Below are positions 5,789 through 47,700 of a stretch of 64,000 bases of DNA, piece after piece (the stretch's first letter is position 1; each line of letters starts with the position of its first letter). Under the pieces are notes generated by a model. That model had not been told where the DNA came from and did no database searches. It saw only the letters and a list, made by a program, of their open reading frames with translations. The translations under genes and the position numbers were made by a program. The stretch comes from Schmidtea polychroa (lineage: Eukaryota), in NCBI GenBank assembly GCA_044892525.1, contig CM097887.1, forward strand, positions 50,406,001 to 50,470,000. The letters run 5' to 3'.

Positions 5789-5896
5789 TTTTTTATATGA
5801 AAATATATTTTTCGGTGCTTTTGAACGTTTTTTCTCATTTAATCATTATAATAATGTTATTTCACATTTCAGCATTGGATAACCTTATGATGACGT

Positions 5897-8800: not shown

Positions 8801-9403
8801 GCTTTAGAAATTCGTAAATTTTCGGCATTTTAGCGGCCTTCTGTTCTCGTTCCTCACGTGCTCGTCGCTTAGCAGCCTCACTTAAATATGACTTAGACAT
8901 AGTTAAGGGTGTGCAGCTAATGCAATTATATAATATCCAACTAATTATACAATTATTGTAAATTGATATACAATAAGCAATATTATTTTTATCCTTTTTA
9001 CCGCATAGTAAATATCAACAAAACCCTATGACCTCTGCCATGATGTCGTTATACCGCCATTTTGAATCGAGTAGGCAAGTAAATTGGATTTGACGTTTTA
9101 TTAATAAACAAGTCCTCATCACATAAAAAAAACCAACGTCAAGTAAAGCAAATAATTTAATAGATGAATGGGTGTACATATGTGGTTTACAACTATATCC
9201 AATATAGATTCCTAATAATATTAAATGTATAAACCGTCCAAACTGTGGTTGCTGTCTTAATAAAAATAAAACAAACGCCAAAGCGATGCTTGGTTTGATG
9301 ACAATCGGGGAATTTATAATGCTCGAACGTATAAATTTTACTAATTTTTCGTCCTGGGCCCTTGTGCCGTGCACAACCTGCACAACCTATTGCTACACCA
9401 CTG
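5897..9403 (-). mobile_element. hAT DNA transposon with a ZMYM1/DUF4371-type transposase
   Basis: Perfect 8-bp TSD GATGACGT (5889-5896 and 9404-9411); termini CAGTGGCGTA / CAGTGGTGTA (reverse complement); internal transposase. Confidence 0.95.
6325..8900 (-). pseudogene. hAT transposase with a single frameshift near the C-terminus
   Basis: 822-aa ORF with TTF Zn finger (CHACWVF), FFSIMVDTTQDISKIDQ, RGQGYDGAATM, CAAHNLNL, TRWSSRYD and CERSFSKLKLIK. A 1-nt loss near 6455 shifts off the normal tail MSEGRLTDLAMLSIE...FAQEKARKRPF* (stop 6325-6327). Confidence 0.9.
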
Positions 9404-20700: not shown

Positions 20701-23700
20701 TTTTATGAATGGGCCTTCTGTGAAAGGTCGCGATGATTCAGCTATCATCAGGCTTAGCTCAAAACTTGTTTTTACTGAATTTTCTGCAAATTGGCTTAAA
20801 TTCGAAAAAAAGTTTCGTTGCTTATCAAATTCTATTTTAAGCTTGTTAACTTTTTCATCTCGAATTTTTCCAGTATATTTATCATATTTTTCACGATGCA
20901 TAGTGTCGTAGTGCCGGCGAAGGTTGAACTCCTTTGGTACTGCGATAGTCTGCTGGCATATAAGGCACTGAATTTTATCTCTCGCCTCTGTGAAAAAATA
21001 TAAATTCTCCCACTTCTCTTGGAAAACCCTTCTTTCATCAACGAGTTTTCTTTTTCTAGATAACAAAGTCATTTTCTGATGGGTATAAAAAATTTTAAAT
21101 ATGCCAATTATTATTTGTTGATTGAAATAACATTAAATTAAAATAAACAAAAATTTAAATTATGTAAAATATATGTATTTTTAATATAACTTATATTTTT
21201 TTAATTTAAATAATTTAAATAATAAAATCAATAATTTTTAAAATAAATAAACTGTTTTCGATAAGATTCATAAGAAAGACGTAATAAAGCCATTATTAAA
21301 TTGTACTAGACGTCATATGTATAAATAAAAATAATTAAAAAGATTAGTTTTAATTTATACAGCCAATTATGATTTTAATTGTTAAATAAGTTTGGTTAAA
21401 TTACAAATCTATGTTTTTTCGTTGCGGGCCGCATGCGGCCCGCGGGCCGCATGCGGCCCGCGGGCCGCGTGTTTGAGACCCCTGCTTTAGTTAATGTGAC
21501 ACTTGCTTTTCTATATTTTTTAATATTATTTTCACATCGACTGGTAATTTAGAAGAGGCGCATCGGAATTGATTGGTCGCATTTTCGTCAAGCAAACTGC
21601 TTCGGCATTTCGTTTTTACTACCTTTAACTTTGAAAAAAATGATTCACACCGAAATGTCGTTCCAAAAACTGTGTAATGCATATGACTAGTCGTTTTAAT
21701 TTTGGATATTTATCCTCGATGATATATTTCTGATAGAAATCGAGCTTATTATTAGTATCAAACAAACACTTCAAATCTAAACTCGATTGTAGCTATATTA
21801 ATTCCATTTGCAAATTTGAGGCACCGATTCAACTTCAATATTAAAAGGAGTTGAGAATATTTTGAACAATTCCTCATATTTTTGCAAATATGAAAATCTG
21901 GCCTCGAATTCTTTTATTAATTTGGTGACTTCATTGGAATATTTCAAAAAATCTTTACGGTCACTATGAAAATTATTTAACAATGGAAAATGAATTGAAA
22001 TATACGATCTTAGTTGATTTTTATAAAGCCTAAGTTTTGTTATGAAGAATTTTATATCTTGGTAACATTCCATAATTATTTTATTTTCGCCTGGTAGCTT
22101 CAGATTTAATTCGTTTAATTTCATAGTTATATCTATTATAAAACATAAATCTAGAAGCCATTGATCATCGTAAAAATCACATATTTTATTTCCAGTTTTT
22201 TCCATAAAAAATATTGATACGATTAATTCAATTTATCTTAAATAAAATATTTTGAACTATTATGACCAAAGTATAACAAAGTATAACAAAATATAACAAC
22301 AAGTTTTATATTTGAATGGTATTATTTTCCAATAAAATCTTATATGAGAAATATATAATAGGCTAAATTAAATTTGCTAAAGTGACTTTTTTATTTAATG
22401 AATTTTTAAATATAAAATATAAAAAGTAAAAAAACTTCAAGTGGACCGCAAAAATTTTTAATTGTGCTGCATGCGACCCGCAGGCCGCAGGTTGACCGCC
22501 CCTAATTTAGATAATGACTATTGATCAATCACTTTTTTCATTTTACACGCATTTTTCTCACTGTCTTTCTCAAGTTTTATAAATTTTAGTGTACACTAGA
22601 AAAAAGTAAAAAGGGCAGTGCCAAAAATTTGTGTCAAATACGAAAAAACATTGATAAAAATTAGAATCTAAATGAAGATAAGTGAAATTCAAAAGGAAGA
22701 AACATATCACAGATAGATGATTTTTTCTAATAACAAAGGTTTATATAAATTAGAAATTAAATATAGTGAGGACTACAGTGCACTTTGACCTCAATATCCT
22801 TACAAGGTTATCATACTGTCATTATTATGTCAAGGTCAATAAATATAGGTTAATTGTATCATTTGTGTTTTAATTTAATTTAAATTTAAATAATTAATTT
22901 ATTATTTTAATTATTCCCAGCCAAGGATTATCAGCCACTTAGGGATGATCGCCAAATCTCTAAATGCTGCCGAGGAAAAAGAAAACAAACAAATATAACT
23001 TATTATACAGAATCAAGTATTTCACCAGTTCCAAAAATCAGGATAGTGTGAACTTACTGAAGGGTTGAAGGATTATCAAAGTGATTACGAGTGGTTTTGC
23101 AAATATTGCGCAATAACTTCTGCGGTGTTTTTGACTGAATACAGAAAGGATAATCAAGATACAATGACGTCTATTATTACGTCAGCGTAATTGTGTCTTG
23201 ATTTTCCGTCTTATTTATTATGTTGCGATATTTTTAGCTATCAGGATGATTGATGTAAATTGATTATGAAGAAAGAATTTGATTTCAGTGAAAAATTAAG
23301 TTTTTTCAAATATAAGACTGTGAAAAGCGTATAATCCATTAGAACAAAAGAATTAATTGAACTTGAGAATTCAAATAATTATCTGCCAATCGGATAAGAA
23401 ATTTTCCGTAGGACACATTCCGAATTTGAAATTTGTTTTTATTGTTTTGTGGAACTTCTATCTTAAAAGTTGTGATTGAATTGAATTGTACAAATTATTT
23501 TATGGAAATAATAATTTTAATTTACTGGATTTCACTAAATTTATTTCAAGGAAAGGTTATCCTCTTCCCACAGTCCAATAACTAAATATCGATAAATTAA
23601 TAAAGACATATTTGCATTTTTTATTTAGTTATAAATAGAATTACTGAATTATCATAAATATAAGTCTAACATTTGAGTCTTTCGACAGTACAAAATTTCC

Positions 23701-26700
23701 CATTTTTGCCATCCCTGTCAGAATTTCATTGCAGCGGCCGTCTATCCGCAACTTTTCAATTAACTCGTTGATCGCGCTCTCAATCATTCCTAGGCGAAAT
23801 ATAATTGGTCATTTCTCACTAATCCTTCATGAGCTTACCAGATTGAGTAATTATCAATGCCAATAATAATCGGATTTTCTCAGACATGGTTGCCATAGTA
23901 TTATTGATGACGTTGACTACCATTTTGTCTGGATTCTTTATTGAATTCCCACTGGCATCAGTACCCATGGCTAAATTCTATAATTATCCATAGGTCATAT
24001 TTATATTTAGACCTTCATTTTCTTTTTCATTNNNNNNNNNNNNNNNNNNNNNNNNNNNNNNNNNNNNNNNNNNNNNNNNNNNNNNNNNNNNNNNNNNNNN
24101 NNNNNNNNNNNNNNNNNNNNNNNNNNNNNNNNNNNNNNNNNNNNNNNNNNNNNNNNNNNNNNNNNNNNNNNNNNNNNNNNNNNNNNNNNNNNNNNNNNNN
24201 NNCATTTAAGTTAACCTGGTAATATTGTAGTCATGATATTCTAATGAAACATTTATTATAAACGATATTTTCATATTTTAAAAATATTTGAATACTGATA
24301 AACTGTTATACCGGGTCTTGCACCCATCGCGGCACAAATGCCATTGGCTGGATTCTGTGCTCCAATAGATTCATTAGTCAAAATAAAAAGATCAAATTTG
24401 ATTGATAAATTTTTTCCTATATAAGATTTTCGTGTTTTGTGTTTATTGTTGCGAGGGGAATAATGTAAAAATCTCAAACTACAAAAAATGCACTAAAAAA
24501 TTCTTATCTAACAAGTCTATAAATCGACAGACATTTGGCTAGTCGCATAGTAATTAGTTATATTACTCATTACGAATGAGATTAGATTTGATCGAAACTA
24601 TTTTAACTTTATACTAATTTTATTGTACTCTTTACTGAATATCAATTGTTACAGTTTGTTGTAACGCCAGGTTTAAACAAAAATTCATAAAATGGGGTAG
24701 AAAGAATTCGATTTTACAAACATAAAAATAGAGTTATTAATCTATGTCATTTATGAAGGATTGAAAAATTCAGAAAAGTGTGAAAACGAAAACTGAGCTC
24801 ACTTGTTCACATTCGCATAACTGATTAACACCTGCCTGAAAAGCAGACAAGCAAGCCTCTGATAGATAGAACATGTTCCCCACCGAGGCTGCTTCTTGTC
24901 TGAGGTGGGGCATTTTTTTAACCATAACTTGTAGTTGCTTTCTGACCATGTCCTTATTTGAATTTGGTTCGTTGTAAGAATCTGGAGTTTTATTGGGATT
25001 CTCTGTACTATTGACTGTGTTATCAATGCTTTTCTGAGCACTTGCCAGTTGCTTCAATTTCACTNNNNNNNNNNNNNNNNNNNNNNNNNNNNNNNNNNNN
25101 NNNNNNNNNNNNNNNNNNNNNNNNNNNNNNNNNNNNNNNNNNNNNNNNNNNNNNNNNNNNNNNNNNNNNNNNNNNNNNNNNNNNNNNNNNNNNNNNNNNN
25201 NNNNNNNNNNNNNNNNNNNNNNNNNNNNNNNNNNNNNNNNNNNNNNNNNNNNNNNNNNNNNNNNNNNNNTGCAATGTGGTTGTGTCGTAATTGAATCCAT
25301 AAATCATCGTTTTCTGATAAATCAACATTTACTAGTTTTTGAGTATCAAAATTTTTATAACTAGAAATTGTGCAATAAATAAATACTTAATTTAAATAAA
25401 TATAAATTTTACCTGTAAGTGTCATTTTTTATATCCAATATGTCATAAGCTAAGCATTGCAAATGTAAATCGTGTAGTATAGGAGTTAGAGGATCAATTG
25501 AACGGTCTAATATTAAAAGAACACTTCGATCTTTATGCATTGTCTGAAAACAGAATAATAATAATTTTAATCATANNNNNNNNNNNNNNNNNNNNNNNNN
25601 NNNNNNNNNNNNNNNNNNNNNNNNNNNNNNNNNNNNNNNNNNNNNNNNNNNNNNNNNNNNNNNNNNNNNNNNNNNNNNNNNNNNNNNNNNNNNNNNNNNN
25701 NNNNNNNNNNNNNNNNNNNNNNNNNNNNNNNNNNNNNNNNNNNNNNNNNNNNNNNNNNNNNNNNNNNNNNNNNNNNNNCGGTGAGATCTCCCCGTTTGGT
25801 AATGTACTGCGATACAGTACTGCATATATGGTTTTCAGGATCTTTTTAATATATTTTGATGCCTTTTGCTAGCTTCGCTCCTTCACTCATATTAAACTAT
25901 TTTTTTATATAATACAGTAGATAAAGTTGTTGGGTTTTGGATTACTTCAAGTCGGTTCTCTCTGACTCCTGGTGTTCTTTAAATTAAAACAATGAACGAC
26001 CCAACGTATATTAAAACAACAGGTTCACAATTTATTATCACTTTACAATTACCAATCAAAGTTTTACACGATTCTCTGCTCGGCGTTGATGCTTTGCAAA
26101 CAAACAATATTCACCTTTTGATCCTTTAGTTCTGTTGACTCTCGTTTTCCTCGGTTTCGGTTTGGTTTGATCTCTTTTCTCCTTTCCGTATTCTTAATTC
26201 TATTTCTTCTTTTCCCTACTTCCCTAATTCGTTTACCACTTTTCCTACAGTCTAATTCTTCGAACCCTAGCTGAGGCAAAATGCCGATTTTCTCTGATTT
26301 TCCCTTTGCTTATATACTCCTCGAAATCAGGATGACAAATGGTTATTGCCGAGCCAATCTTTCGTTTGACATTTTCTCCTACGTGTTTGCTTCGGCTGTC
26401 ATCCATAATGGTCCAACGAATCCAGATAATTAATGGCCCTACCGGTCTTCCTACGCGCGTTATCTTCTCCTTACTCTTTTCCCATTAATCATTGTGTCAA
26501 ACTAATGGGCCCAAATCTTCCTTTTGTTTGCCTTTCTTCTTGTTTACCCAGCTCGGGTTTCCTTTATCTCTCGGGTTCTCCATTGGCTCGGGTTTCCCAT
26601 TAGCTCGGGTTTTCCATTAGCCAACTAATTAATTAATTAACGTTTTCTGTTTTCATACGTTTGAATGTTTTTCGACCCTTCCTAACCCTTTTCTGATAAA

Positions 26701-29700
26701 TCCCTAACCATCATCTTGTTGACCATTAGCTAATCTATACCTGTCCCGTTTTTCCCATTCGATTTCGATGATTTTTCCATTTATTGATTTTTCTCGGATT
26801 TCCGGATTCTTGCCTTTCGTAATTGCTTTTTGCCTTTTCTAATACTGTTTCCATCACACTTTCCTTTACTATTGATTCTGTGCACGATCCCGCTTTTATT
26901 TGCCTTTTTTCCTCGCTTACTTTCCATTTGAATTATTATCCTAATTTTTATTTAACTTTTTAATTTTAATTTACAGACCTCAACATATCTCCCCCCTTAA
27001 AAAATTTTTTCGTCCTCGAAATTTATGTTTTGCTGTGATTATGTATTATTACTATTATTATTGTTGTCGTTANNNNNNNNNNNNNNNNNNNNNNNNNNNN
27101 NNNNNNNNNNNNNNNNNNNNNNNNNNNNNNNNNNNNNNNNNNNNNNNNNNNNNNNNNNNNNNNNNNNNNNNNNNNNNNNNNNNNNNNNNNNNNNNNNNNN
27201 NNNNNNNNNNNNNNNNNNNNNNNNNNNNNNNNNNNNNNNNNNNNNNNNNNNNNNNNNNNNNNNNNNNNNNNNNNNNNNNNNNNNNNNNAAAATTTGATTA
27301 TATCCCTTTGTTTGTCGACAGTAAATATTGATAAGATGTGAATTATTTAGATCGAATTAAAAAAAAGATAGTGCTTTAGATATTTAGCCGAAATATTAAT
27401 TAATTTCTTTAATATCTAAATTATAAAGTTTCTATACGATTTTTGATTTTTAATAAATATTTTGATCAAGTATTTTTTTTGAGATATCAAAGTTTTAATG
27501 TCAGAAGATTTCCATTAAAAACTCCTTTCAAGATAACTTCATTATTTTATTACGAATTTATTCAATTGTAAAAATCCTATTTATTTTTTTTTTAATAACT
27601 CAACCACTATATCAATATTTTTTAATGAAAAGTAGAACATAAAGACAATGAAAGTAGACAGATGTGTTTCCGACAGATATAGGTCAAATTCCCAAACATT
27701 TTCAAACTTTGAAGTACATCACCAATCGATCCGGCACGTCTACCGTTTTGGGATAATATATTTCATTGGTTGTATGTTTATAGGCAGCATAGAGAATATA
27801 TTTCTGTCATCCGAAACGAATTCGATTGGTCGATTCGATAATTCCTGCTATTGAAGAAATTTTGAAACTATATCAGTTTATCACAACTGATTTTTTTTCA
27901 TTAATTGTCTCTCTATTAGTTTGTTAATGATATAAAATATATTAAAAAAAATTATATCGTTTTCCTTGTTCTTTATTGCCTAGACGGAAAAGCAGTGGAA
28001 AGTAATTTTATTTATATATTTTCAAATTATTTGCGTTACTTTAGGTTCAGCCAGCGACGGTGAAGGTAGATTAAAGGATTATCTGTTATTATGTTTATTA
28101 AAGACATGAAATATTTTGAAAAAATTTTTCCTTGTTCCTTATTGCATAGCCGGAAAAGCAGTGGAAAGTAATTTTATTTATATATTTTCAAATTATTTGC
28201 GTTACTTTAAGTTTAGCTAGCGATGGTGAAGGTAGATTAAAGGATTATCTGTTTAACTACAAAGGCTATAATCAGTTAATGTGAAGGTAGATTAAAAAAT
28301 TATTTGTTTAAATACAAAGGCTATAATCAGTTAATAAGGCCCGTTATGGATTTAACTGATGTAATCGATGAAAAGTTTGAATTAGCCCTTATTCAAGTCT
28401 TATTGTCAGGGAAATCGTATTTTTTTTTTATAGTTATTTAATTATAATTCTACTAATTTTTTTTTTTTGTTGAAAAGTATTTATTTTATTAATTTTTTTA
28501 AATAGTTATTTAATTATAATTCTACTAATTTTTTATTGAAAAGTATTTATTTTATTAAAAGTATATTAAATAGTTATTTAATTATAATTCTACTAATTTT
28601 TAAATTATTTTATCTATGAATGATATTTTATTGAAAAGTATATTAAATAGTTATTTATTTATAAATATAATTTTATGTCAAGTTGTAGAATTCTTTTCTG
28701 AAGGTCCTAATTAATGAAATTGTTACCAAATGATGACAAATATCATTATTATTTTATTTGTGCTGCTGCACGTCATTTAATGACTCTATCTACAATAAAT
28801 GTTATTTGATATATGTTTAAATTGAATATGAAAAATCTATGTATGGGTCAGTGATATAATATTTCTGAAAATAGAAATTATCATTATTCTTTTATTTATG
28901 TTGTTGTTTTTGATTAAAATTTCACTTAACTATATAACTTTAATTGGAATCATTTTCCATCACAAAACTCACTTATATACAACTTTTATCGGTTCATATA
29001 CTAAATAGTTGGTGGGGTTGGGATCCCAACGATATTTATTATTTTTTTTGTTTTATTGATGGGTTATAATTAATTCACTACCGCCTTTTCCACAGCATGG
29101 TAAAAAGTTAAAGTCTCCTACCGCACCGACCGACTCATGATATCACTTTGTTTACTCCCCATGATAAGCGCTAGCGGTGTCACTAATTGTCGGTAGTCCA
29201 CTTTTGTCTTTCCGCCTGATAAAGTATCTGCTATGAACATTAATATTCCGAATATCTAGATGAATATTTAATTATCCTACGGTTTTGACGTAGCCGATAC
29301 TGATAGGCTCTATAATTAATTACCCTGTGGTTTCTTAACGTAGCCCGTACTGATAAGCTTTCTAATTAATTACCCTGTGGTTTGTTAACGTAGCCCGTAC
29401 TGATAAGCTTTCTAATTAATTACCCTGTGGTTTGTTAACGTAGCCTGTACTGATAAGCGTTCTATATAAGTTTCTGCTTTACCACTTTTCGTTAGTTTTG
29501 TCTTGCCAATCTTCAAGTAAGCATTTTATATTTTATTTCTTTTTCATATTTTTTTTGAATTTTAGTAACGCCATCCATCAATTAATATGGACGTAAGTGA
29601 TTACTTGTCTTTTATTTTTTTGTGATTCTTTTTACCATGCTGTCCTCAACTATTAGTAATGCGTTCCCTCACAGCAACCGAGCATTTGCAATCGCTGTCC

Positions 29701-32700
29701 AGGGTAGCCAAACCCCGGTGATTGCAAGTGCTCGTGTTGCTTATTAAATTAACTTATTGATGCTTATTAAATTAACTTATTTACTTTTTTAATTTTAATT
29801 CGTTAATTTGTTTATGCAACTACCTACACTCATGTTTTGGGTTATATTTTTGATTTTTGATTTTGTATTTACACTAAAAGCAAACTTCTAATTACAGCTA
29901 CTCGTATTTTTCTGACAATTTTAGCCGTATTTATACTTATTAATTTATTACGTAATTCTTACAATCAATTACTTCCCTGCACTAATTATTTGTCGAGGGC
30001 GCCATGGTACGGAGTTTTACATAGTATTTATTTCGTTTTTTCTTTTCAACCCTTACTATTTTAGGCTGTGCCAGAACCTAAGTTTGAACATCTCGATGTT
30101 ATGCAATGGTTATTTAACTGCCATACTAACAGGTTTTTAATTTCTTTTTCAGGGTCCCTTTACCACCGCGTCGAAAGGGATTGAAACGTACCTTTGCCTG
30201 TGTGGATACAGGCAGTAGGTTTGAACGACGCCCGCCTTGCAATGTACGCAGGGAATGGGACTGTGGCATCCAAAGTCCCGTTCTGTTGGACTCTGATGAC
30301 GAATAAACTTTGAATAAATGTTCAGCATACCTTTGTTTTTAATTTATGCTAGAAAGGGTGGGGTAATTGTGTCCCTCTTCGCGATTAGTCTTTGTTACTA
30401 CTAATGTGAAATTATTCTTTACTTATTTAAAATTTTGTTCTCTCGCCCAGTGGGTTACCCATTGCTATATAGTTATGCTAATTCATTAATTACTAATCAG
30501 CCATATTATTTATTTCTAATGCTCATTTAAGGTAGTCATTTCATTATTTGCAACGTTTATTTGAGTTATTCTATTTGCTCGTTTAACTTTGTTCATTTTT
30601 ATCTATTATTCATTCATTTAATTTATCACTTTTTTACTTATTTATTTATATCAATTTGTTTATTCATTTGATTATTTGTTAATTTACTTATAATTATTTA
30701 ACTATTATTTTTTTTTTTTTCTCGAGGACGAAAAAACACCAACAGGGTCCGTTTAAATAATTTATTTTTTTAGTCTAATTGATTTATCTCACCATCATCT
30801 TCCGATTCCTCCATTTCTTCTACTCTCATTCGAAACATCGCGAAATCGGCTTCGTGTTGAAAAAATAAGATTTCCAAACGGTCCAACCGCCTTTTCAGAC
30901 GGAAGTTTTCTTCCTCCAAATCTGTTATTCTGCCCTGCATGCTACGAAACTTTTGTTTTAGTTCTTGCGTACTTGTTTTACACTCTTTGCATGTCATCTC
31001 CGAGGCTTCTTGCATTCTCTGAAATTAAATGATAGTTATTTTTTTTGTATCACTCCTTATTCGCAAAGCATCAACACCTCGCTTCGAATCTCAAACAAAT
31101 TACACAGTTCATCCTATGGTACTTATAAAACATGCACATTGTTAATATAAATGTAATATATTTTTATACACTATTCATGCAGATCACAATTTACAGTCTT
31201 GTCTCATAATATGATGATGGTTGAAGGATAGTTAGTTGTCTCTCTTTTACACATATCAAGATGGTGATGATTATGAATGTTATTGATAAGATGAGAAAAC
31301 CTGTTATTAAAATGTAAATGAGATATTCACAATAGTTGACTGTCAAATCCGAATTTATCATCATTAGTTTGTTTGAGTTAGGTTTTGTCGTCTCTTGGGT
31401 CGGTAATTGGAAAGGTGATGTGGTTGTATATGATTTTCATTTCGATTCATTGATTGTCTTGACTTCCACAAAAACTGTTTGCCATCTGCCTGGATCGGTT
31501 ATCCATCGCTGATATTTAACTGTTAATTCCCATGCCGTCTCTAAATCAGAAGTGTAAAGTGTAAAAAATTGATTACCGGCATCTAATATAGTCAGGGTTT
31601 TTTGTTTGTAGATAATAACAACTCTTTCATCATTTCCTGATTTTCTATATATCGTTACCGGTCCATTTCCAACACTCAGGGTTATACGATTTGACTCGTC
31701 TCTGAGATAGATAGACTGGGTCTCACTCTTAAATCGTGACCATTGGTTTCTCACTACCGTTCCATTTTCGAGGCATATGTTCTCGTAGTAGTTTGCATTA
31801 ACTGAATAATTTTGATTCATTTTCAATTTCTCGTAGCGGATAAATGATTTTCGCGAGTTAAGGGTGTCGACATTTAACCCTTGAAATGTGATTCGCACTT
31901 TCACCAAGTCCACTGGCTTCCAATATATATTGATTCCGTTTATCTCTGGCTCTATCTCGATCAAGTTTCGCATCTCTTTTGTGTGCACTTCTATCGGAAT
32001 TTGCGTGTACCACTTTGACATGTTCTGTCTCAACAGCCATTGGTATTTGTAATTTGGCTTTAACTTTCGTACCGCAACTATATCTTTATCATAATTCAGT
32101 TCTACCACTTGTGCCGTATTGTCTAGTAAATTAATAATTTCTATTTGGTCTGCGATCTCGCATTTACAGCTCCATACTATATTTGTTAGAGTGGAATATA
32201 TATGTATTTTCTCCATTCCTCGGATTTTGTTTACCGCATATGGTAAATCAATTTTTTTGCCGCTCGCAACTGTTACTAACATCAGCATTACTGCTACATA
32301 TAATATCTTATTGATGTAGCTGACTGGTGTTGGATTTTTCGTGAATTTCTGTTTCAATTTTGTTTGACCCGTTACTTTATTCTGCTTGGATCTTAAGGGG
32401 TATCTAGATTCATCTTCCTCTGGCACTAGTTTACATCGATTTGCATGCACAATCATCGGGTTAGCCTTTTTACTCCTGAATGGTAATAACTTCAAATTGG
32501 TTTCGGTGGTGTCGCACACTTTGTAGGGTCCTTTAAATGGTCTTTGCAATTTAGGCGATAAACCTTTGAGAGGTTCCGGTCTGTTCAGATATACTAGATC
32601 TCCAATCTTTATGCCATGCGCATGTGCTTTTTTATCGTATAATTCTTTATATTTCTCTTGGTTGTGCTTTATTGTCAAACCGGCTTTAGTCCATACTGAC

Positions 32701-35700
32701 TGCATTCTTTCTTGCATCAATGCTTTATAATCGGGTATCTCCATATATTGTGAAATTGGTGGTTGGAATTTGAGATCAATCGGCATATTATTTTTCCTTA
32801 AATACATCAAGTAAAAAGGGGTCTCTCCTGTACTTTGATTTACTGCATTTCTGTAGGCAAATAAACACGGCTTTATGAAGTCGTCCCAATCTTTCTGTTT
32901 TCGATTCACATATGATGAGATCATATTTATCAGTGTCCCATTAAATCGTTCCACCAATCCATCAGTTTGTGGATGATATGGTGACGTATTCAATTTCCAA
33001 ATTCCAAATAAGTCTGTGATTGATTTAAACATCTCACTTTGAAAGTTCTTTCCTTGATCAGTTAACAATTTCTTTGGAGTACCATAGCGAAATATTATGT
33101 TTTCCACAAATATTCTAGCAATCGTATCTGCTTTTTGGTTTGGAATAGCGTATGCTTCTGGCCATTTGGTAAAGTAGTCACAAAAAACAACAATGTATTT
33201 GTTTCCTTTTGTTGTTTCCGGTAATGGTCCCAGAATATCCATTGCCGTCATCTCCATTGGTGCTGCAGGTACTGGCATCGGTTTTAATGGTACTTTAATC
33301 TTTTTACCAGTATTTCTGCGGGTGATGCATACTTTGCAACTGTTACACCAATTTTTCACGTCTTGTTCCATTGTCGGCCAAAAGTATTTCAATTTTAATC
33401 TTGATAGCGTCTTGCGCTTTGACAAATGACCTCCCAACGCTCCATCATGATACTGCATCAGTAATGCATCTCTGTGCTTGGCTGGTATAATGATTAATGC
33501 TTCCCCATTTTTCCAACATTTAAGTATTCCATTATGAATTACATATTTGCTGTTTGCATCTGTAAGTCGTTTCCAGTCTTGTTCTTTTCTTATTTTGACC
33601 GCTTGTTCCATAAATTGTTTTAATTCACTATCGTTTTCCTGATCATTTTGAAGTTCAGACATATCATTAACAGCTTTGATTGCTGCGAATATAGTGCCTT
33701 CCACTTTTTCAGGTGTCCCTTCACTATTATTTTCTGGGATTCTCGACATTGCATCTGCATTCGCGTTAGCTTTACCTGTCCGGTATTTAATCTCAAAGTC
33801 GTATTCTTGGAGGGCAATTGACCATCGTATTAACTTACTGGCTGAATCTCTGTGTTTCATTAACCACTGTAATGGATTATGATCTGTATAAACAGTAAAT
33901 TTTCTGCCCAATAAATATTGTCTAAAAGTAGTAATTCCATACACTAACGCTAACGTTTCCTTTTCAATCGTTGAGTAGTTTTTCTCGTGAGGCCTCAATG
34001 ATCTGCTTGCGTATGCTATTACATGGTCCTTTTCACCTTCAAATTTTTGTCCCAATACCGCACCCAATGCAACGTTGCTTGCATCCGTCATCAAGATAAA
34101 TTGTTTTGTAAAATCTGGACATCTTAATATAGGAGTTGTTACTAATTTCTCTTTTAATGTATTGAAAGCGTTTTGTTGTATTTGTCCCCAAATAAATTTA
34201 TTGTTTTTCTTTAGTAACGTATTCAATGGTTGTGCGATATGAGAGAAATCTTTTATAAATTTTCTGTAATAGCTCGCCAAACCTAAAAATTGTCTAACCT
34301 CATCGGCATCTTTTGGTACTGGGTACTCTTCCACTTTTTTGATGTTATCTGGATTAGTTTGTAACCCTCGCCGTGATATTATATGTCCTACATAAATCAC
34401 TTCTGCTTTGCCCCATTCACATTTCGATGGTTTGATTTTTAATTTTGCACTTTTGAGCCGTTTAAATACAGTTTCTACATCCTTCAGATGTTCTTCAAAA
34501 TCATTTGAAAATATTATTATATCGTCGATATATACCAATGCATGTCGAATTCCTCGTAACACATAATTCATTCCTCGTTGGAATGTAGCTGGGGCTCCTG
34601 TTAATCCAAATGGTAACACATTGAACTCATACAGTCCTTTGCCATCCGAGAACGCCGTCTTTCCTCTATCTTCCTCTTTTACTCTAAATTGATTGTACCC
34701 TTTGTTTAAATCAATAACTGTGAAATATCGTGCCTCTCCCATTTGATCAAACATTTCTTGGGATACCGGAATTGGATAAGTGTCTTTCCTTGTAACTTGA
34801 TTTAGCTTCCGATAATCTACGCAAAATCGTAAGTCTCCATCTTTTTTCTTAACTATCACTATTGATGAGGAGAATGGTGACGCGCAGGCCCGGTTTTAGG
34901 CATAGGCGACGTCGGCAGCAGCCTAGGGCGCCGATTTACAAGCGGGCGCCAAATAGTTCTGCTTTTTTTATCAAGTAAATTAAATATTTTATAAACTTTC
35001 TATCTTTATATTGATNNNNNNNNNNNNNNNNNNNNNNNNNNNNNNNNNNNNNNNNNNNNNNNNNNNNNNNNNNNNNNNNNNNNNNNNNNNNNNNNNNNNN
35101 NNNNNNNNNNNNNNNNNNNNNNNNNNNNNNNNNNNNNNNNNNNNNNNNNNNNNNNNNNNNNNNNNNNNNNNNNNNNNNNNTTCCATCGTTGTTTTAGTCC
35201 GATACCGATTACTTATTTCTTTTAAAATTTAAAAAAATACAACGGAAAATCGATTTAAAAAAATATTTTGCAAGTTCAAAAAAGTTAACTGAAAAGCGGT
35301 TTTAAAAAAAATTTAGCATATAGCATGCTCTGAAATTTTTTTAAATTACGCAATAATTTTTAGTTTTATTTTAAAAGAATAAAGTCACATGCAGTAAAGT
35401 TTTAAAAGACTAAAGTAAATGTTAAAAAAGTTAAAAAATAAATAAACAGAAAGTGAAAAAAAAAATAAAATTTAATTAGTGCAGGGCTCAAATTTTTTTT
35501 ATTTAAAGTATATATAATTTCGGTCGTACTTCCAGTATAATTTTTACATATATACAACACAGTAATTTAATTTATATTGGATTTTTCTACACCTATTATT
35601 AAATCTATTATATTCTATTAATTTTTACTTGAGGTAGCATAATGGCAGATAGAAAAAAATTATCTGGCGCACAAAATAGAAAACGTAAAGCTGAAAAGAA

Positions 35701-38700
35701 AAATGAAGAAAAAAAGCAAGAAGGTGCTTTTCTGAAATATATTTGTCGTCAACAATCACAAGATAAAAATCGAAATGAAATGACTCCGAGAAAACAAGTA
35801 TACTGCAATTTGGAAGAGCAAATGGATAGGAACTCTACAACTAGAAATGCAGAGGTGCCTATTTTGACTGAGTTTCCACATACGAATGTGGAAGAAACTA
35901 TAGAAGAAACTGAAGTTGAAACAATTGAAGAAACTGTTGAAGAACCTATAGAAGAAATTGTATTAGAAACTATAGAAGACACTGAAGAAATTTTAATTAA
36001 TGAAACTTTGGAAATATTAGAAAGCGTAAATTCGAGTCTTGATTATAGTGATCCGGCAACTTGGTTAAATTCACATGACTTACGTTCTGGCCGTTTGAGG
36101 CAAATTTTGGTTGAACACGGACCAGAACAAATTGAAGAATTTGATTTTCCTCAAAATGAGAGCCATAGAAAATTTTCAATGAATTTTTATAGAAGGAGAC
36201 TTGCAAATGGAGAAGAAATGCGGCGTCATTGGCTACAGTATTCCAAAACAACTAATTCGGCTTTCTGCTTTTGTTGCAAAATTTTTAATAATAACCAGCG
36301 TGTAATACATCTCTCCGATAAAGGATCAAGCGATTGGAAAAATATGTCTGTAATTTTAGAAAGACATGAGAAAAATAAGGATCATTTAATTAATTTTCAA
36401 ACTTGGAAGGAGCTAGAATTGCGTTTAAAAAAGAATAAAACTATTGACCAGGATAATTTGCGTCTCATAAAACAAGAAGAGAGACACTGGCAACAAGTCT
36501 TAGAGCGTCTTATAGGTCTAGTTAAAGTGCTTGCTACGCAAAACATTGCATTTCGCGGAAGCAATGAAAAATTGTATTCTCCTGGAAATGGAAACTTCCT
36601 TAGCTTTGTAGAATATTTGGCCTCTTTTGATCCAATTATGGGTGAGCATCTTCGCAGAATAAAGAACAATGAAACACAAGTTCATTATTTGGGAAAAGAT
36701 ATTCAGAATGAGTTAATACAACTTTTATCTAAGAGTATTAAAACAAAAATTTTAAAATCGATTTCCATGGCTAAATATTTTTCAATAATCCTGGATTGCA
36801 CACCAGACGTTAGCCATACTGAACAAATGACGTTGATTATTCGTTTTGTCCATACAAATACAGAAAATTGTGATTTAGATCCCATATGCATAAGAGAACA
36901 TTTTTTGGGATTTGTGAAACTAACAGATACAACTGGTGCTGGTATGACCGATGAAATCGTTCAGATGTTAGCAGATATGTCATTACCTATTGAGAACTTG
37001 CGTGGCCAAGGATACGATAATGGTAGCAATATGAAAGGCAAAGAAAATGGCGTGCAACGGCGAATTCTTAATCTAAATCCACGAGCACTATTTGTTCCTT
37101 GTTCTGCGCATTCTTTGAATCTGGTTGTTAATGACGCTGTAAGCTGTTGTTTAGATGCTACATCATTTTTTATGTTAGTGCAACGAATATATGTCTATTT
37201 TGCCGCTTCAACACGTCGATGGGAAGTTTTAAAACGTCATGCTTCAAACTTGACAGTGAAGCCATTGAGCGATACAAGATGGGAGAGCCGAATCGATGCC
37301 CTTAAACCTCTACGCTATCAGCTAAGTAAAGTTATTGCTGCACTTATTGATATTTTTCAAGATACTTCTCAAACAGGAGTTTCTGGTAATACTTCACGTA
37401 TAGAAGCACAGGGCCTTGCTAAAGCTATTTCGAATTTCGAGTTTGTAGTTTCTGTTATTATCTGGTATGATATTCTTTTCAACATAAATATTACAAGCAA
37501 ACAACTTCAATCTGAGAAAATTAATATTCAAGATGCTATGAAGCTACTAGAAGATACCAAAAAATTTCTATTCAACTCCCGAAATGATGAAGGTTTTGAA
37601 AGAATATTGGTAGATGCGCGAGAACTTGCTGAAGAATCAGAAATTTCCCCAATCTTTAAACAAACTCAGCGTATCAGAAAACAAAAAAAACAGTTCGAAT
37701 ATGAAGCCAACGATGAGCCCATTCAGAACCCAAAAGAAAAATTTAAGATCAGCTTTTACTTCGCAGTTTTGGATAGAGCTTTAAAATCTGTTGAGCAAAG
37801 ATTCACCCAAATGTCAACGATAAATTCAACATTTGGATTTCTATACAACATACATAATTTGCAATATATTTCGTCAAAGAAAATATTAGAGGATTGTCTT
37901 AAACTGGAAAATTTTTTACGGCACGATGATTCTAAAGATATTGATGGTACAGATTTATTGAACGAATTGATATTTATAGCTAGACATATTCCAAAAAACT
38001 TATTGCCGGAAGATGTACTTAATTATATTTGTAAAAATAATATAGTGGACAGCGTTCCAAATATATTTGTTGCTTTGCGAATTTTATTAACCCTACCAGT
38101 TTCTGTGGCAAGCGGTGAACGAAGCTTTTCGAAGCTTAAACAGATCAAAACATATATAAGATCTACAATGTCACAAGAACGGCTTGTGGGATTAGCAATA
38201 TTGTCGATTGAACACGAAATGGCGCGTGATATAGATACGAAGTTGCTGCTTGAAGATTTCGCTAAACTAAAAGCACGAAAAATTAAATTTTAAATGGTTT
38301 TTGTTTTTATATATATTTTTGTGTAATAAATAAATGAAGTATAGTTATTTTATTTTCATTTACTTCTTTAATTATTGGGTTTGTTTCTAGACTAGAGGCG
38401 CCATTTTTTTAGTTTGCCTAGGGCGCCAAATACTCTAGCGTCGGGCCTGGTGACGCGCTATCTCGAATTATTCCAAATTCCTTCATTGCTGTAATCTGTC
38501 TATCGCTTTCATCTTGATGAACGTAGGGGATTCTGTATGGCTTTATTTTTATTGGAGTTTCGTCTAATAACGGTATTTCATGCTCAATTACATTGGTTAA
38601 ACCCAAATCATATTCGTGTTTGGCAAAGATATCTCGGTATTTCCTCAACAGTTTTGTGAATTCCTTTTTCTGCCTCTCATTTAAATCATTGCTTACCACT

Positions 38701-41700
38701 TCAGGCTCCTTATACACCTTGACGTTTCTTGGTATTTTACAATTTGTTTCAATAGACATTTTTGATAATTTTCCCAATTTTGTTTTTGGGTGTAGCTGAA
38801 CCGGTTTTTTGCTGCCATTCGTTATATGGACTGGTACTATCTGATTTTCCACTTTGACAACTTCGTCACATATCGGTAAATCATATTTTTCGACTAGCGT
38901 TTGATTTGGTTCGAATATAAAATCACCATTATCCACACTCATGGTATTTGCACAATATACCATCTCCGATTGTGGTGGTATTGTCAATGTCTGATTCACA
39001 AACACTTCACCTGCCCTGTGAATTATTTCTCCTGTTTCTCCTGCTATCAAATTACCTGTCTTTAAATCAAGTGAGACTCCGTCCAGCTGCTCTAATATAT
39101 CCATGCCGATCAGACATCGTACTGGGCTTCCCTTCATTATGAGCGCATCGTGCGCTATTATTCGATCTCCAATATGGAATATGACGTTAAGTTGTCCAAT
39201 TATGTTTAATTCATTTTTTGATAATGACCTCACTATTTCGTCGGTAGGCTTTATTCGCATTTTCTCCTTCGCGTTTAATACATTTTCCGATATTATTGTG
39301 TGACTAGATCCCGAATCAACAAAAGCTTCCACTTTATGTTTGTTCATTTGTATAAATATTCGGGGTTGCTTTCCTCTTTTTGTTAATGTCATCATTGAGT
39401 AGTTGCATGGTAAGCCTAACATATTTTTTCTCTCGATCTCTGCGCTAGAAGGCTCGATTCTCTCTCCTACCATTCCTTCACATTGTAATGCGATGTTTTC
39501 CACTGGTTTCATCTCTCGTAATCGATCAACTGGATACACTGGTGCTGGTTGCATAAATGATTTTGGTATACACAGTTTTGTAAACGTGTCTACGCTACTC
39601 GCATTCAACAGTGGCTCTTTTAAGATTTGATAGGTTCTTAACGCTTCTTTATTCATTCCACTTAGTTCTTGATTGTCAACATATAACGGTGCACTATCAC
39701 CCTCGTTGTCATTGTCATTGTTCTCGTCCCTTGAAGGGGTTGTACTCGCGTAGCTCACCTTTTTCTTCTTTAATATTCGAGCCTTGAGTATCTCCAACTC
39801 CTGATATTGATGATGAGTAATGAAGAATCTAGCCAATAATGGTATGCACCCAATTACTAGTTTCCACGACCAACCTGTGATCGCGTATAATCTGTGTGTT
39901 GATAGGACCTGCGATATTATTACTTTAATTACAACACATATTACATAAATTCCAATCAGTCCGGCACACGCTTGTCCAATGAACATAAACTTTCCCCAGA
40001 TCTTTTTCATTGTATTATACGTCGCTTTCTTGTAATGATCTGGAGTTAATAAATACTCATAATTTACCTTCCCACTTCCGCTTGGGAGAATTGTATCTAC
40101 CATTTCCATTATTACTCTTTCTTTCTTTGATGGAAATAACAAGTTTCTGCGAGCTTCCTCAATGTCTTCGTTCGAGTAAATTCCACTTTGCGACAATTTT
40201 TCTAACGACGTAAAATTTACCAGATATTGTAATTCTGTCAATTCTAAGTTTTCCGGTGTCTTTACTTCTCGATGATCTGGTAATGCAATCCAAGATTCTG
40301 GTGTTAGTCTGTATAATGGTGCTAACAATCTATTGCACTGTAATACTTTCGGTTTCGCGTCCTCTTCCAGTAAGATTCGTGTTACAGGCTCCATAAATCG
40401 CAACTTTCCATTTAAATTCACTGGTAACTCGTTGGTGCATTGGTCATACTTTGTCAGTTTAACTGGTACCGCTTTACATTTATAGCTATATAGTGCTTCA
40501 CCGAAAATTCTGGCGAACACTCCATTTTCTGCAATTAACATTGGTGCTACCAAATTAGGATTGGTTATAGCCATTGTCATCCGATTTCGGAGTATTTCTT
40601 TGTTGAGATTGCAATCATTTATAATAACTTCTCGGTACACATTTTCAACAGTATTTTGACCAAAGTGAAATAAATAATCTATTTTGTTATTAAAGTAATT
40701 TGTCAACTTAATATCTCCGGCATGTATGTTTGTTTGGGCCTCTGTAATCATCTTCTGAGATACATATATACCTTTATAATTTGTCTCATAGACACTTTGT
40801 CCACACTTTGTTTTAGTTTCTTTTCTCAGGAATCGCATCCCATCTTCCTCCGAGGTTGACATTAACACTGTTGGAGTATCTTTCATCCGTAGAGGTGTGA
40901 TTCTTGTTGTTGTACTCGTTGCTGGATCCATTCTTATTTTCTCAGGCTTTTCCCTGATCTGTTCTCCCGTTATTTCTTTAAAACTCATTGACTTCAATTG
41001 CACTAAATTGCACTTTTTGGTATCGACATCGTACACCAAGATTGATTCTCCTGTCTGACAGCTAGATTGTTTCATGTTGCAGAATGGATGTGTTTGTAGT
41101 TTACCAGTATCATCATCAAATGATCCATCAAATTCTCTTAATTCTGACATGTACTCTTCCACAACCACGGCTTTGTCCATTATAGCATCGTCTACTTTGT
41201 ATGGCTCGCCTTGGCAATCACCATTCGACTTTATTATCCCTCGCACGGTTACAGTCTCACGGATTTTGTGGTTAAGCTTTGCTTGTAGTTTGAGATCTGC
41301 ATTGATTTTCAACTGTCCTGTTTGAAAGGCTGCCAAACAATTCTCTGGAATTATTTCTATCGGTCTCGGTATCGATTGCATTTTCACCATCGATGAGTGG
41401 CTCCATTTCCCACAAAAAAATACAAAAGTAGTTCGCTTCACTGTACACTCTCTCACCTTTGCTCGTCGAAACCCCGATTCTTGATATACATGATATTTTA
41501 CTGGATTTGTTACTTTAAATTTTACTGGATATGCATCCGAACACTCTGCTACGTTTACCAACGAATATACTCTTCCCATTTCGGTTTGGGAGCAGTCGTA
41601 TGCCACCAATGAATTCGTCGTGTTTATTATTCCCAATAACATAATAATAGAAATCATTAACCATGGAAATGCGAGTTTTCCCTTTTTCCTCACTGTCTCG

Positions 41701-44700
41701 GTTTTTGGGCTCTCAGCCTTTTGTATCAAATTTTCCCATCCGCCATTGTTTGCGATCCACCTAGCCAAATATTTATTCGTCATTTCCGTAGCTTTCTTTA
41801 TCAATGATTTTGAACTGTCATTTTCCAGACAACCATAAATACCAATCTCCAATATTATATAGGCTAACGCTGTCAATATTACATCTCGATCTAACTCAGT
41901 TCGTGTTAGGTCCTCAATCACTGCTTCCTCACAAAATTCCTTTTCTTCATAATTTCTTTTAATTATCGACGGTAATCTCCTCTTTAATTCCGTTGCCAAT
42001 CTTTTTACAACTCTTTCCTCCCCCTCCAAAGTATCATCTTCTGTTTCAGTTTCATCTAACAAGTACAATTCCGTAACTAAACTTTTTAACATTCGTTCAG
42101 TCTCGTTTGATTCATCTAAACGCTCAGTTTCGCTCGATTTATCTAAACTCAAGGATTCAATTTCCGCATCATTCTGTTTTTTCCGACATATCGCAATGTC
42201 ATTTTTCGTTTCAACGAAGTTCTCTTCGCTCTTCATCTCATCTATGCTCGGTAGTACCCTATTATCGGTGCTCATTTCCTCGATATCCCTTGCAACTTCA
42301 TTTTCCGATCCCATTTCCTCTTTTTCCATTGTTTCTAATCTCTGCAATTCATTAATTTCTTGATCAATTTCTCCTGGGTCATCTACAACTTCAGTTTTAA
42401 TCTCCACATTATTATTATCCATTTCCTCATATAGAGGCCAAAACGGTACTATTACCGCATCTCTTTCCATTTCATCCCTTTGTTTTGTTGCGTACACATT
42501 ATTAATACAATTTGGGTTACATCCGTAGTTTAATAAATATTCGTCATCATCCAATTCTCGTCCTTTGAACGTCAACACGATAATTCCTTCATTACCTAAT
42601 ATCTCCGCTGCTTTTTGTCGTATTTTCTTTGCTTTTACACTCCAATGTTCCTGATAATATTCAATCCTTTGATCCGCAATATTTAACGCTATTATCAAAG
42701 ACTTCGCACTATCGTCTGCCGCCTCATAATCATGTCCTAGTTTTCGGATTACCTCTTTTAGTTTTGCCTGATAACTCGTCGGTTTATTCGTATACGGTAC
42801 GATGCATTCAAACAACCCTTCTTTCATGTCTCGATCCATTTCGATGCTCATTATGAAGTCGATACTCGCATTAATTTTATCTCTATTCCCTGCATACAGG
42901 GTATCTTGTAAATCTGCTAGAATCTTTTCCCAATTTTGTCTGTCTGAATTCAAAGTATTAACAGCATTAATAACATTTACTTTATTTTTCCAGCCTGGTA
43001 TCAGACCGCAATCTACTAAGTACTCTTCGTCTTCCAGACATCGATTTTCGAATTTTAATTGCACTTGCCATCCACTGTATTGACGCAGGATTCGCTCCTT
43101 TAACTCTCTGATTTGTCCGTAGGCATTTACACGGAATTGGCACTTCACATTATCAAGTCCCGTCGTTTCCACTATGATATCAGCTAAATCCCTTGTTGAC
43201 CGTAAAGCCTTGCCAAACTTTTGCATTTGTTTAAGTATCTCATCGTCTCTGTTTCCTTTGAATAACTTTGCACATAAATTTATGGCTCTCTTTAGTTCGC
43301 TTTGGGTTAGTGACATCACACTGAGTTCTGCGATCCATCGTTTCAACTGGGAGTTGTCAGTTTCCATTTTCTCAAGCCATTTTTCAACTCGGGCTAACAG
43401 TGCAGTTGGATTCTCATCTGAAGCGATCTTTCGCACTTTCGTGGCAGGTTTTCCCTCACCTTCTGACACGGTTCCAATTATCATATGAGATTCAGTTTCC
43501 TCATCTGATTCAAATTTCGCCACTAGTTTGTTTAGCTTCTGTCGCATTTCTCGAAATTCCTTTTCCATTTTGTCTTGAAATTCCTCTCTCTGAGCATATG
43601 TCATATTACTAGTGTTTGGCATATCTTCTTGGAATCTGATTGATTTCTTTAAAATAGGTCTGCTGAATCTTTCTGAGTTCCTTGGGCATGATCGCGCCAT
43701 GTGGCCGTATCCCTTGCACGAATGACATTGGATCTGTCCATTTGTATTCACTTTGTCCCTTTGTGGTGAAGGTGGCGTTGACGATGACCTTGATCTGGTA
43801 AAACAGTTTCTGCTAATATGCCCTTTCTTTCCGCATCGATAGCATTCGACATCACTGCTGATCCGTTTGTTTTCTGTGAATCTCTTGTTAGGGCTGGGAT
43901 TTTTCCCATATTTGAACCAACATTGATTTGAGTAGTGTCCAGACTTTTTGCAATGTTCGCATTGAGGATTATTTACCTGTCCATTTGATTGTACGTTCAT
44001 GGCTGATCTACTGGCTTGAAATCTATTATTTGGTCTCAAAATTGGACTACTGATCTGATTTATTTTCTTTTCATCCCATGGTGCTCTCACAGGCGTAATT
44101 GATCGCTCACGTCTCTCCACATTAACTCCAAAAGCATCTGATCTTTTTGCACTTTTTAAATTCAGCTCTATCTTCATGGCTTTCTTCACGAGCTCATCAA
44201 AATTGGAAAAATCCACATAACATAGGGCTTTTTTGATTTCGGAGTGGACTCCGGTTATAAACTGATCTTCTAATAGCTCTTTAACCTGCTTGGCCATTTC
44301 TGCTTGGTCTGGTTTAACTTCAAAGGCTTTATCTGCTAAAGTGGTCAGATGATAAGCAAACCTTGAACTCGATTATAAAATTTCTGTCGCATGATTCTTT
44401 TGATATCTCCACCAACCAGTTTCAGTGCCATTGCATCCTTCAATTTTGTCCAATCATTGCCAACATTTCGTTTGTCGACTTGCTGCCAGGCTTCTCTTGC
44501 CGCACCCTTCAAATAGAGTGGGAATCTCTGAACCATAATGGCTTGTGTCCATCCGTATGCTGAGGCGTACATATAATAATCTCCCATGAAATCTGCAAAT
44601 TCAACAGGGTCTCCTCCATATTGATTGACGGGTAATTTCTGGCAACTTGCGAAATCAATCATCTCTCTATTGAGAGGCATGACAGCATTATCATTTGCCA

Positions 44701-47700
44701 TTTGGACTTGTTTCTGACTTCTGAGGTTGTATCGGTTCACTTTGAGCTAAACTTCAAACGTTAAACAATAATTTAAAATTATTTTTCAACTTCTTTTAAA
44801 TCTCCCAATAATAGCCTTTTATAATCTCGTTAACACTATTTTCAAACTTCTAAGCCGACTTTCACTCGCGTCAGTACTAATTCTTTTTATAATTCCTTTT
44901 TCACTAGCTTTCAATAATTTCCCTCCGACTTTCAATCACGTCGGTACTATTTTTTTCAACAATTAATTTTTTCACTAACTTTCAATAATTTTCCGCCGAC
45001 TTGCGATCACGTCGGGCTCACCAGAATATATGTTGGGTTTTGGATTACTTCAAGTCGGTTCTCTCTGACTCCTGGTGTTCTTTAAATTAAAACAATGAAC
45101 GACCCAACGTATATTGAAACAACAGGTTCACAATTTATTATCACTCTACAATTACCAATCAAAGTTTTACACGATTCTCTGCTCGGCGTTGATGCTTTGC
45201 AAACAAACAATATTCACCTTTTGATCCTTTAGTTCTGTTGACTCTCGTTTTCCTCGGTTTCGGTTTGGTTTGATCTCTTTTCTCCTTTCCGTATTCTTAA
45301 TTCTATTTCTTCTTTTCCCTACTTCCCTAATTCGTTTACCACTTTTCCTACAGTCTAATTCTTCGAACCCTAGCTGAGGCAAAATGCCGATTTTCTCTGA
45401 TTTTCCCTTTGCTTATATACTCCTCGAAATCAGGATGACAAATGGTTATTGCCGAGCCAATCTTTCGTTTGACATTTTCTCCTACGTGTTTGCTTCGGCT
45501 GTCATCCATAATGGTCCAACGAATCCAGATAATTAATGGCCCTACCGGTCTTCCTACGCGCGTTATCTTCTCCTTACTCTTTTCCCATTAATCATTGTGT
45601 CAAACTAATGGGCCCAAATCTTCCTTTTGTTTGCCTTTCTTCTTGTTTACCCAGCTCGGGTTTCCTTTATCTCTCGGGTTCTCCATTGGCTCGGGTTTCC
45701 CATTAGCTCGGGTTTTCCATTAGCCAACTAATTAATTAATTAACGTTTTCTGTTTTCATACGTTTGAATGTTTTTCGACCCTTCCTAACCCTTTTCTGAT
45801 AAATCCCTAACCATCATCTTGTTGACCATTAGCTAATCTATACCTGTCCCGTTTTTCCCATTCGATTTCGATGATTTTTCCATTTATTGATTTTTCTCGG
45901 ATTTCCGGATTCTTGCCTTTCGTAATTGCTTTTTGCCTTTTCTAATACTGTTTCCATCACACTTTCCTTTACTATTGATTCTGTGCACGATCCCGCTTTT
46001 ATTTGCCTTTTTTCCTCGCTTACTTTCCATTTGAATTATTATCCTAATTTTTATTTAACTTTTTAATTTTAATTTACAGACCTCAACAAAGTAAAATAGA
46101 CTTGAGAACTAGTCGCTTGTCAGAATGCGCGGTGGCTAGCTCAAGGCACAATTCGTTCGATCGGTAATGTGTTAAATGTTAAACAAGTAATTGATAAAAT
46201 AAGATTTCGATGCGGAATATATATTAAATTGAATTTTCTCATTTAATTTAATATTAATTCTGCAGTGAAAGCTTATTTTATCATTTACTTGTTTAAAAAT
46301 AATAGTTATAATTATTATTAAACTTATTATTAATTATTTACTTACAAGGCCCATGAACCCATTCGCTTCATCATTTTTGAACATTTCTTGTTGAACTTTA
46401 ATTGCAAATCTTTGTGCCTCTTCTGTCCTAAAAAACCAATTAAAAATCTCAAAGTAAACAAAATTTAGTTAAAAAGAAAATATAATCAAAATTTATTATT
46501 AAAAATAAGCAAGACTAAATTTGACATTTAACGCTAACCTCTTGATTTTTTTAAAGAAAAATAGTTTGAATTTATATTTTGGATTTTTAGATAGTGATAA
46601 AACAAGGGAAATCTGCTTGCATTCCTAACTTAGATGGTCACAAAACAATGACATTATCATTGGTCATTAAATTTATTTTATTTTCTAATTCTTATTGTTA
46701 AATTAGATTTGACTAATATTAAAGAGAAATTGCTTTTAAAGTATAATACTACCCGAATAAAGAATTCTACTATCAATTTTACCCAATACTTACAATACTT
46801 ATCCCGGCAATACGAGGAGTTTCAGTTACGAATTGAACAAATTGTGTAAAATTATTTATTCTAGATGGCCATTCCCAACCCAAATAGTATATTTTGCATT
46901 AGAATCTCTTTTATGCTTAAAGTATAATTGGAATCATCACCTTATACTTTAGTAAATATAGTTATAGATAACAATTATATTTGAATTATATGACCAATAT
47001 AAACAGCTATCAAACTATCAATTGTGACCGTCACTGACATTATTGTCACTTGGTTATATTAACTGATTCCGGATTATTATTATCATTAAAACAACAAATA
47101 AAAAATTCTCTTTATTTACAAAATTAATAAAGCATTGGCAAAAATTTGAGACGAAAATAAAACCAAAATTATAGTGAAAACTTTTTATGTAGAAAAAATT
47201 TAATTAACTAAAATTTATATTATTTTAACCTTCGCGGAACATTAATGAATAAATAAAAATATACAAGTAATGAAAATTAAAAATGTTTGGAATCAAAGAA
47301 AAAATACAATAAATGATTTTTACACAAAATTTAAGACTGTAGGGTTCTGTGATTTGACAGCTTCTTCATATACGATGCCTCTTCTAATGGTACACTAGTT
47401 TAGAACTTATATAGATCTTATTTGATTCGAATGTCATTACAATATTTAGTTGTGTTTAAACCGATGTTGAGATACAATAATGGGTTTTTGAAACTTATTT
47501 TGTAATATGTGGCCACAGCTGTAATATTTTATGTATAATAGTAATGAAGTGATCAGGTTCTCGGATCTGGCAGTAATATGATTGTGTTCAATCCCCAATG
47601 GTACCATATCTGTTACATAATAGTGATGAAAAACAAATAAACTTAGTAGGTAGATATAGTGGCCTACGGCAGCAATAGGGGGGGGGGGGGGTGGGTCAAA

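Follow-up and report, generated by a model that had tools for sequence, protein, structure and literature searches.

The 64-kb window (the whole stretch of DNA that was analysed) carries a Ty3/gypsy LTR element at positions 25928-46088 (20.2 kb, including a 3.6-kb insertion) in which a predicted class III fusion glycoprotein of the gB/chuvirus G type lies in frame between Gag and the protease. The element belongs to a young, very abundant planarian family. The best explanation of the whole, to which we assign a probability of about 80%, combines this young element with a predicted class III fusogen, a polyprotein that would cross the membrane repeatedly, and a single old acquisition of env. 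The features of the element are as follows, in the order of its reading.

46089-46092 and 25924-25927: target duplication AAGT, 4 nt, flanking the element
45031-46088, minus strand: 5' LTR of 1,058 nt with TG...CA ends and 2 mismatches against the 3' LTR
45006-45023, minus strand: primer-binding site, 7 nt inside the LTR
43701-44701, minus strand: Gag, with a Retrotrans_gag domain and three CCHC knuckles
42453-43235, minus strand: two ubiquitin-like stretches (PF00240, E 6.5e-6)
41736-41924, minus strand: Bcl-2-like region, a weak match (E 0.003; 18.5 bits, below the Pfam cut-off of 31.4)
41610-41672, minus strand: putative internal signal peptide for Env, with basic residues, a short hydrophobic core and small residues ahead of LVAYDC; cleavage predicted
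39990-41609, minus strand: predicted class III (gB/chuvirus G-type) fusion glycoprotein ectodomain, 540 aa, 14 cysteines, one N-glycosylation sequon
39915-39989, minus strand: Env transmembrane (TM) anchor, the highest hydrophobicity in the ORF
39813-39890, minus strand: moderately hydrophobic conserved segment past the TM (GWSW at 39875-39864), likely amphipathic and not a second crossing
39078-39371, minus strand: aspartic protease with a DSG motif, sharing the frame of env (Pfam)
34885-38449, plus strand: hAT DNA transposon at the start of RT, with the 8-nt target duplication GTGACGCG and 8-nt inverted ends
35633-38293, plus strand: open hAT transposase of 886 aa within this transposon
32325-34884, minus strand: RT, RNase H and integrase in Ty3/gypsy order (Pfam)
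31437-32324, minus strand: second internal signal and FN3-like, beta-rich protein past the integrase, ending early in the window copy
25928-26985, minus strand: 3' LTR, with a polypurine tract at 26986-27000

What is expected of an errantivirus, in the operational sense of PMC13524379, was found here, namely LTRs with a target duplication, a primer-binding site, a polypurine tract, Gag, the enzyme order PR-RT-RH-IN and env. The Pfam domains and the single frame bear out a Gypsy-type carrier with env in frame upstream of the protease, as proposed in an earlier note made from the sequence of this DNA. No Pfam match to a dUTPase was obtained between protease and RT. The primer-binding site resembles tRNA-Trp; two degenerate 70-nt repeats of this site follow at 44827-44944, and the 64-kb window contains no tRNA genes. 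As for the Bcl-2-like region, Bcl-2 family chains filled the list in a second search, with a best E of only 0.09. Its single-sequence model (pLDDT 66) placed Bcl-2 chains at ranks 29-34 in Foldseek (E 1.4), and this model gave no Foldseek match at E<=0.001 and none at Z>=8 in a wide search.

The env lies within an ORF of 1,984 aa (38418-44372, minus strand). All 12 motifs that had been quoted for it occur there in the correct order, on the minus strand, in the same single frame as the protease and ahead of it; LVAYDC begins at 41609, exactly where it had been placed, and the frame continues without a stop into the FVDSGS motif of the protease (39323-39306, minus strand).

The Env ectodomain was recognised by Pfam PF24664 (Monjiviricetes_fusion) with an E-value of 7e-94 and 315 bits against a cut-off of 27, and a library of 1.84 billion proteins contained 1,351 Env matches at E<=0.001. 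Of the 155 proteins fetched, 109 were aligned with the query; those left aside were short fragments and the longest polyproteins. In this alignment of 110 sequences, 11 of the 14 ectodomain cysteines are at least 90% conserved. The score, the number of matches and the conserved cysteines argue that the motif pattern is not a matter of chance. The AlphaFold model of the ectodomain (pLDDT 91.7, pTM 0.74) has a helix of 48 residues (302-349) and agrees with the architecture expected of a class III protein, in which a long central helix accompanies beta-rich fusion domains and PH-like domains, while the signal peptide and the C-terminal TM are indicated by hydropathy and conservation, with cleavage presumed. 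When the model was compared with the PDB by Foldseek, all 35 rows among the matches listed were herpesvirus gB (best E 2e-14), at a TM-score of about 0.45 and 9-12% identity among these matches. In BFVD, the top matches were chu-like and related G proteins (E 8e-39, TM-score up to 0.75), of only 17-21% identity to Env. The HMM and structure searches thus returned a class III fold, the best matches were not host proteins, and the chuvirus-like, class III, gB-type assignment of the earlier note holds by Pfam, by the AlphaFold model and by Foldseek. On this model, Env is a predicted class III fusogen of the gB/chuvirus G type; for other family members, predicted trimers are reported in PMC13524379. 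A search of the PDB by sequence with the ectodomain gave five weak centrin matches, none of them meaningful, and gB was reached by the fold search only. The phage collection, searched with Env, gave no match.

The copy in the window is dead in cis. It is broken at three places: a 22-nt gap near 44359 separates the env frame from the start of Gag, the hAT transposon parts the env frame from RT, and an early stop lies at 31437; the polyprotein therefore cannot be made from this copy. The hAT transposon has landed in an element with LTRs that are still identical except at 2 sites, so hAT activity is very recent. More hAT-like ORFs are present at 6432-9014 and 19570-21132.

Other copies of the family are in a better state. 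Among the best 80 of 2,982 candidate genome matches, which were the ones scored, all 80 were of 98-100% identity, 68 had an env without a stop and 13 had a frame open over at least 3,200 aa, these being the best protein matches, a choice that biases toward few changes. In a second natural copy, which was read as separate stretches, one frame takes in Gag, env, PR, RT, RH and IN in turn and finishes with a membrane protein at its C-terminus. The 3' non-coding part at 27059-29210 of the window could not be aligned with this second copy and perhaps contains a further insertion; tandem repeats of 50 nt occupy 29285-29469. In env, the 10 copies that matched best, a choice that carries the same bias, differ by 17 synonymous and 9 non-synonymous changes, which gives a pN/pS of 0.15. 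We also compared the element with reads from two raw RNA runs, which bear another organism label, of which about 2% each was sampled, and whose reads reflect the family and not a single copy. Here the ratio was 0.05, with 34 synonymous and 6 non-synonymous changes among 40 of 337 differences, all 40 located either in the protease region or towards the C-terminus of env. Judged from these substitution counts, env is under purifying selection, with its function maintained.

The layout of the polyprotein suggests how Env could reach the membrane. Gag would be translated in the cytosol, the internal signal would direct the ectodomain into the ER, and cleavage by signal peptidase would leave Gag-UBL-Bcl-2 membrane-anchored. 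The Env TM would then halt transfer, PR-RT-IN would fold in the cytosol and be released by the element's own protease, and a second signal past the integrase would insert a second type I membrane protein. In such a scheme Gag, Env and Pol would be made 1:1:1, as in a flavivirus-style polyprotein, and Env would likely coat budding particles and fuse them with target cells.

Sixteen related long proteins were inspected by eye; 14 of these extend upstream of env, and each of the 14 shows the signal pattern before an AYDC-type motif. The internal signal aligns in position with the N-terminal signal of 6 inspected stand-alone glycoproteins. A 19-residue hydropathy window flagged this segment in only 6 of the 14 relatives, a low rate that is expected for short cleavable signals. 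Only 4 of the 14 polyproteins have a Bcl-2-like motif ahead of the signal, so the signal is the older feature. Past the TM, the conserved segment scores +4.7 in hydropathy versus -0.6 for the TM itself; being weaker than the TM, and present also in stand-alone G proteins, it is likely amphipathic. The earlier idea of a single membrane crossing has to be changed, as the chain would cross twice around env, in at the internal signal and out at the TM.

Two further crossings after the integrase are likely. A second signal-like segment is found there in the window element and in 4 of 5 relatives with full Pol, three of these 4 having a clear terminal TM, and in the second natural copy the post-integrase protein extends to a TM and a short tail. 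The relatives keep a signal and a TM around ectodomains that are unrelated to one another; those of this family and of P0014 gave no alignment. The FN3 label on this protein is an Atlas lead (score 0.90, with recognition below threshold), and FN3 had no Pfam match in it. In the relatives P0005, P0006, P0007, P0012, P0013, P0016 and P0019, at least two aspartic-protease stretches follow env.

Env could also have been retained without a free virion, either to fuse neighbouring cells or vesicles for spread by contact, or for some other purpose in an element that spreads intracellularly. A 1:1:1 polyprotein would yield unusually high Pol per Gag, with Gag presumably tethered to the ER, unlike in Drosophila gypsy; purifying selection indicates that there is a function, not which one; and herpes gB requires partner glycoproteins (PMC13524379). 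However, the signal-ectodomain-TM layout is shared with stand-alone chuvirus-like G proteins, which serve viruses as envelope proteins, and a virion equipped for both attachment and fusion would agree with the second surface protein that 4 of 5 relatives with full Pol encode past the integrase. We regard retention without a virion as unlikely, and favour an Env that would act on budding particles. The Discussion of PMC13524379 describes the entry mechanism as unknown, with no errantivirus having a gB-type env shown to enter cells.

The earlier note had also proposed an independent capture of env by a Gypsy element, which our results do not support. The best sequence matches to Env are other retroelement polyproteins (37-43% identity), in which a protease follows env in frame, while stand-alone glycoproteins of 630-720 aa share only 23-31% identity with it. 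In a FastTree phylogeny of 53 picked rows (the window, 14 polyproteins, 4 fragments and 34 stand-alone proteins), all 15 polyprotein-embedded envs group with 3 of the 4 fragments in a single clade (SH support 100, long stem of 0.57), the embedded envs in it being 29-43% identical to the window Env. The rows, with hosts unnamed, were picked for their similarity to the query, a choice that makes a clade around it more likely, so that a single old acquisition is favoured at most. Within this limit, the tree makes a single, old uptake of env by the ancestor of the element lineage likely, and a fresh capture by the window element itself unlikely; an ancient acquisition is likewise argued in the Discussion of PMC13524379.

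A recent, independent capture of a chuvirus glycoprotein would agree with the nearest named structural relatives of Env, which are chuvirus and related G proteins, and with comparable captures by mosquito Pao elements (PMC7642597). Moreover, GAG-ENV-POL elements are non-monophyletic in the Pol trees of PMC13524379, which leaves room for a separate origin of the flatworm elements as a group. Against a recent event stand the higher identity to retroelement polyproteins, the single clade of embedded envs, and a cysteine type common to six S. mediterranea families whose pairwise rows in the supplement of PMC13524379 give 32-64% identity. A recent capture is thus very improbable, and we retain a single old acquisition as the reading.

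The element family is transcribed over its whole length. In both RNA runs, reads covered all 30 bins of 38448-46088; within the 5' LTR, read starts cluster around 45842 and loose poly(A) ends around 45306-45320. None of the 9 joints listed over 38448-46088 for the two runs is of the GT..AG type. A reading in which the in-frame position is incidental, and Env is translated from a separate spliced RNA or after internal initiation, is hardly credible. Most errantiviruses do have a separate env ORF (PMC6431247), and an LTR-to-env joint (41444-45592) has 3 and 1 reads in the two runs. But this joint, with 4 reads in total, lacks GT..AG ends, and the in-frame fusion is retained in 14 of 14 related polyproteins with protease or long flanks, across 60-70% divergence.

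The same two runs gave a lead on divergence between species. Reads at 95-99% identity to the element numbered 2,989 of 4,655 and 5,143 of 8,197, whereas none of the 42 reads that each run gave on an EFL1-like host gene reached 95% (identity about 88-92%), the element (38448-46088) and the host region (3200-6000) being compared at different read cut-offs, 90 and 80, and the host side consisting of one gene with few reads and many partial junk matches, from unnamed organisms. The cleanest reads at the listed places of this gene carry 12-18 differences. The EFL1-like (EFTUD1) gene lies at 3199-5731, and its GT..AG introns are visible in the contigs. Against the RNA reads, dS of the element is roughly 0.09-0.18; for the closest Schmidtea pair, PMC11410931 gives 0.3 at four-fold sites. 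The low divergence of the element could reflect spread between species, and constraint on synonymous sites in retroelements is a possible alternative. An infectious retrovirus, with a gB-type fusogen and a variable FN3-like attachment partner made from one polyprotein and having crossed planarian species, is a doubtful though conceivable extension of these data.

The element would be of greater consequence should the proposed parts hold. The family is transcribed, is present in many copies and lives in an animal in which RNAi works, which offers a way to test gB-type cell entry, and also how capsid, envelope and enzymes from one polyprotein come to lie on two sides of a membrane.

The in-frame env layout, and very probably the element family too, have already been published, and our results confirm what is in print on Ty3/gypsy elements of planarians, namely that they carry gB-type envs placed in frame between Gag and Pol. 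The closest published element is Smed_errantivirus_2, listed with an HSV/gB env and 215 copies in supplementary file 1 of PMC13524379 (Chary and Hayashi, eLife 2026), where the GAG-ENV-POL order is given for all Platyhelminthes errantiviruses. Over Env domains I-II, 246 of 251 residues are identical by eye to its sequence in supplementary file 2; this is 98.0% at the amino-acid level over 251 env residues, while the copy rule of PMC13524379 is more than 98% of nucleotides over three ORFs. On the same env stretch, Smed_errantivirus_1 and Smed_errantivirus_2 are 64% identical in that supplement. The host of the window element is accordingly a planarian of the Schmidtea type and may be a sister species. 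The likeness to Smed_errantivirus_2 extends over a near-identical Env, the HSV/gB type, the GAG-ENV-POL order and a high copy number; unlike for the window element, no LTR or tRNA primer is given in its table row. The words 'polyprotein', 'single ORF', 'Bcl' and 'fibronectin' are absent from the main text of PMC13524379. In the part of the literature covered, with Grohme 2018 and Lee 2026 outside its scope, we found no statement in print of the conserved internal signal, the second post-integrase membrane protein or the low between-species divergence.

Chuvirus glycoproteins in mosquito Pao elements, which the earlier note had mentioned, are documented in PMC7642597 (Dezordi 2020), where the Anakin elements, of the BEL/Pao type, are described with a chuvirus glycoprotein captured within mosquitoes. 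Anakin shares with the window element a chuvirus-like glycoprotein used as a retroelement env and differs from it in superfamily (BEL/Pao) and host. The window element has Pfam matches to RT_RNaseH, Integrase_H2C2 and Retrotrans_gag, and none to a Pao peptidase or DUF1759 as in BEL/Pao. With the G proteins of Jingchuvirales/Monjiviricetes and with gB, Env has in common the predicted class III fold, the conserved cysteines and the signal-ectodomain-TM layout; the difference is that the window Env sits inside a retroelement polyprotein. A gB-like env has reportedly been found in nematode Tas as well.

The layout as a whole is that of the planarian element Burro, in which env lies in frame between BCL2 and the protease, a case termed the first of its kind in 2019 (PMC6431247, Arkhipova and Yushenova). 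Burro/GYPSM1 and the window element share one polyprotein with Gag, three CCHC knuckles, a ubiquitin-like part, a BCL2-like part (weak here), env before the protease, and RT-RH-IN. In PMC6431247 the Burro env is matched to mononegavirus fusion glycoproteins and likened to gypsy Env (F type), whereas the window Env has a predicted gB-type fold. Burro1 exceeds 30 kb and its 4,873-aa ORF includes BIR, MATH and ankyrin (PMC6431247), in contrast to the 20.2 kb of the window element, its 3.6-kb insertion included, and the 3,334-aa frame of its family, in which BIR, MATH and ankyrin have no Pfam match. The window element is a compact relative of Burro, and works like it.
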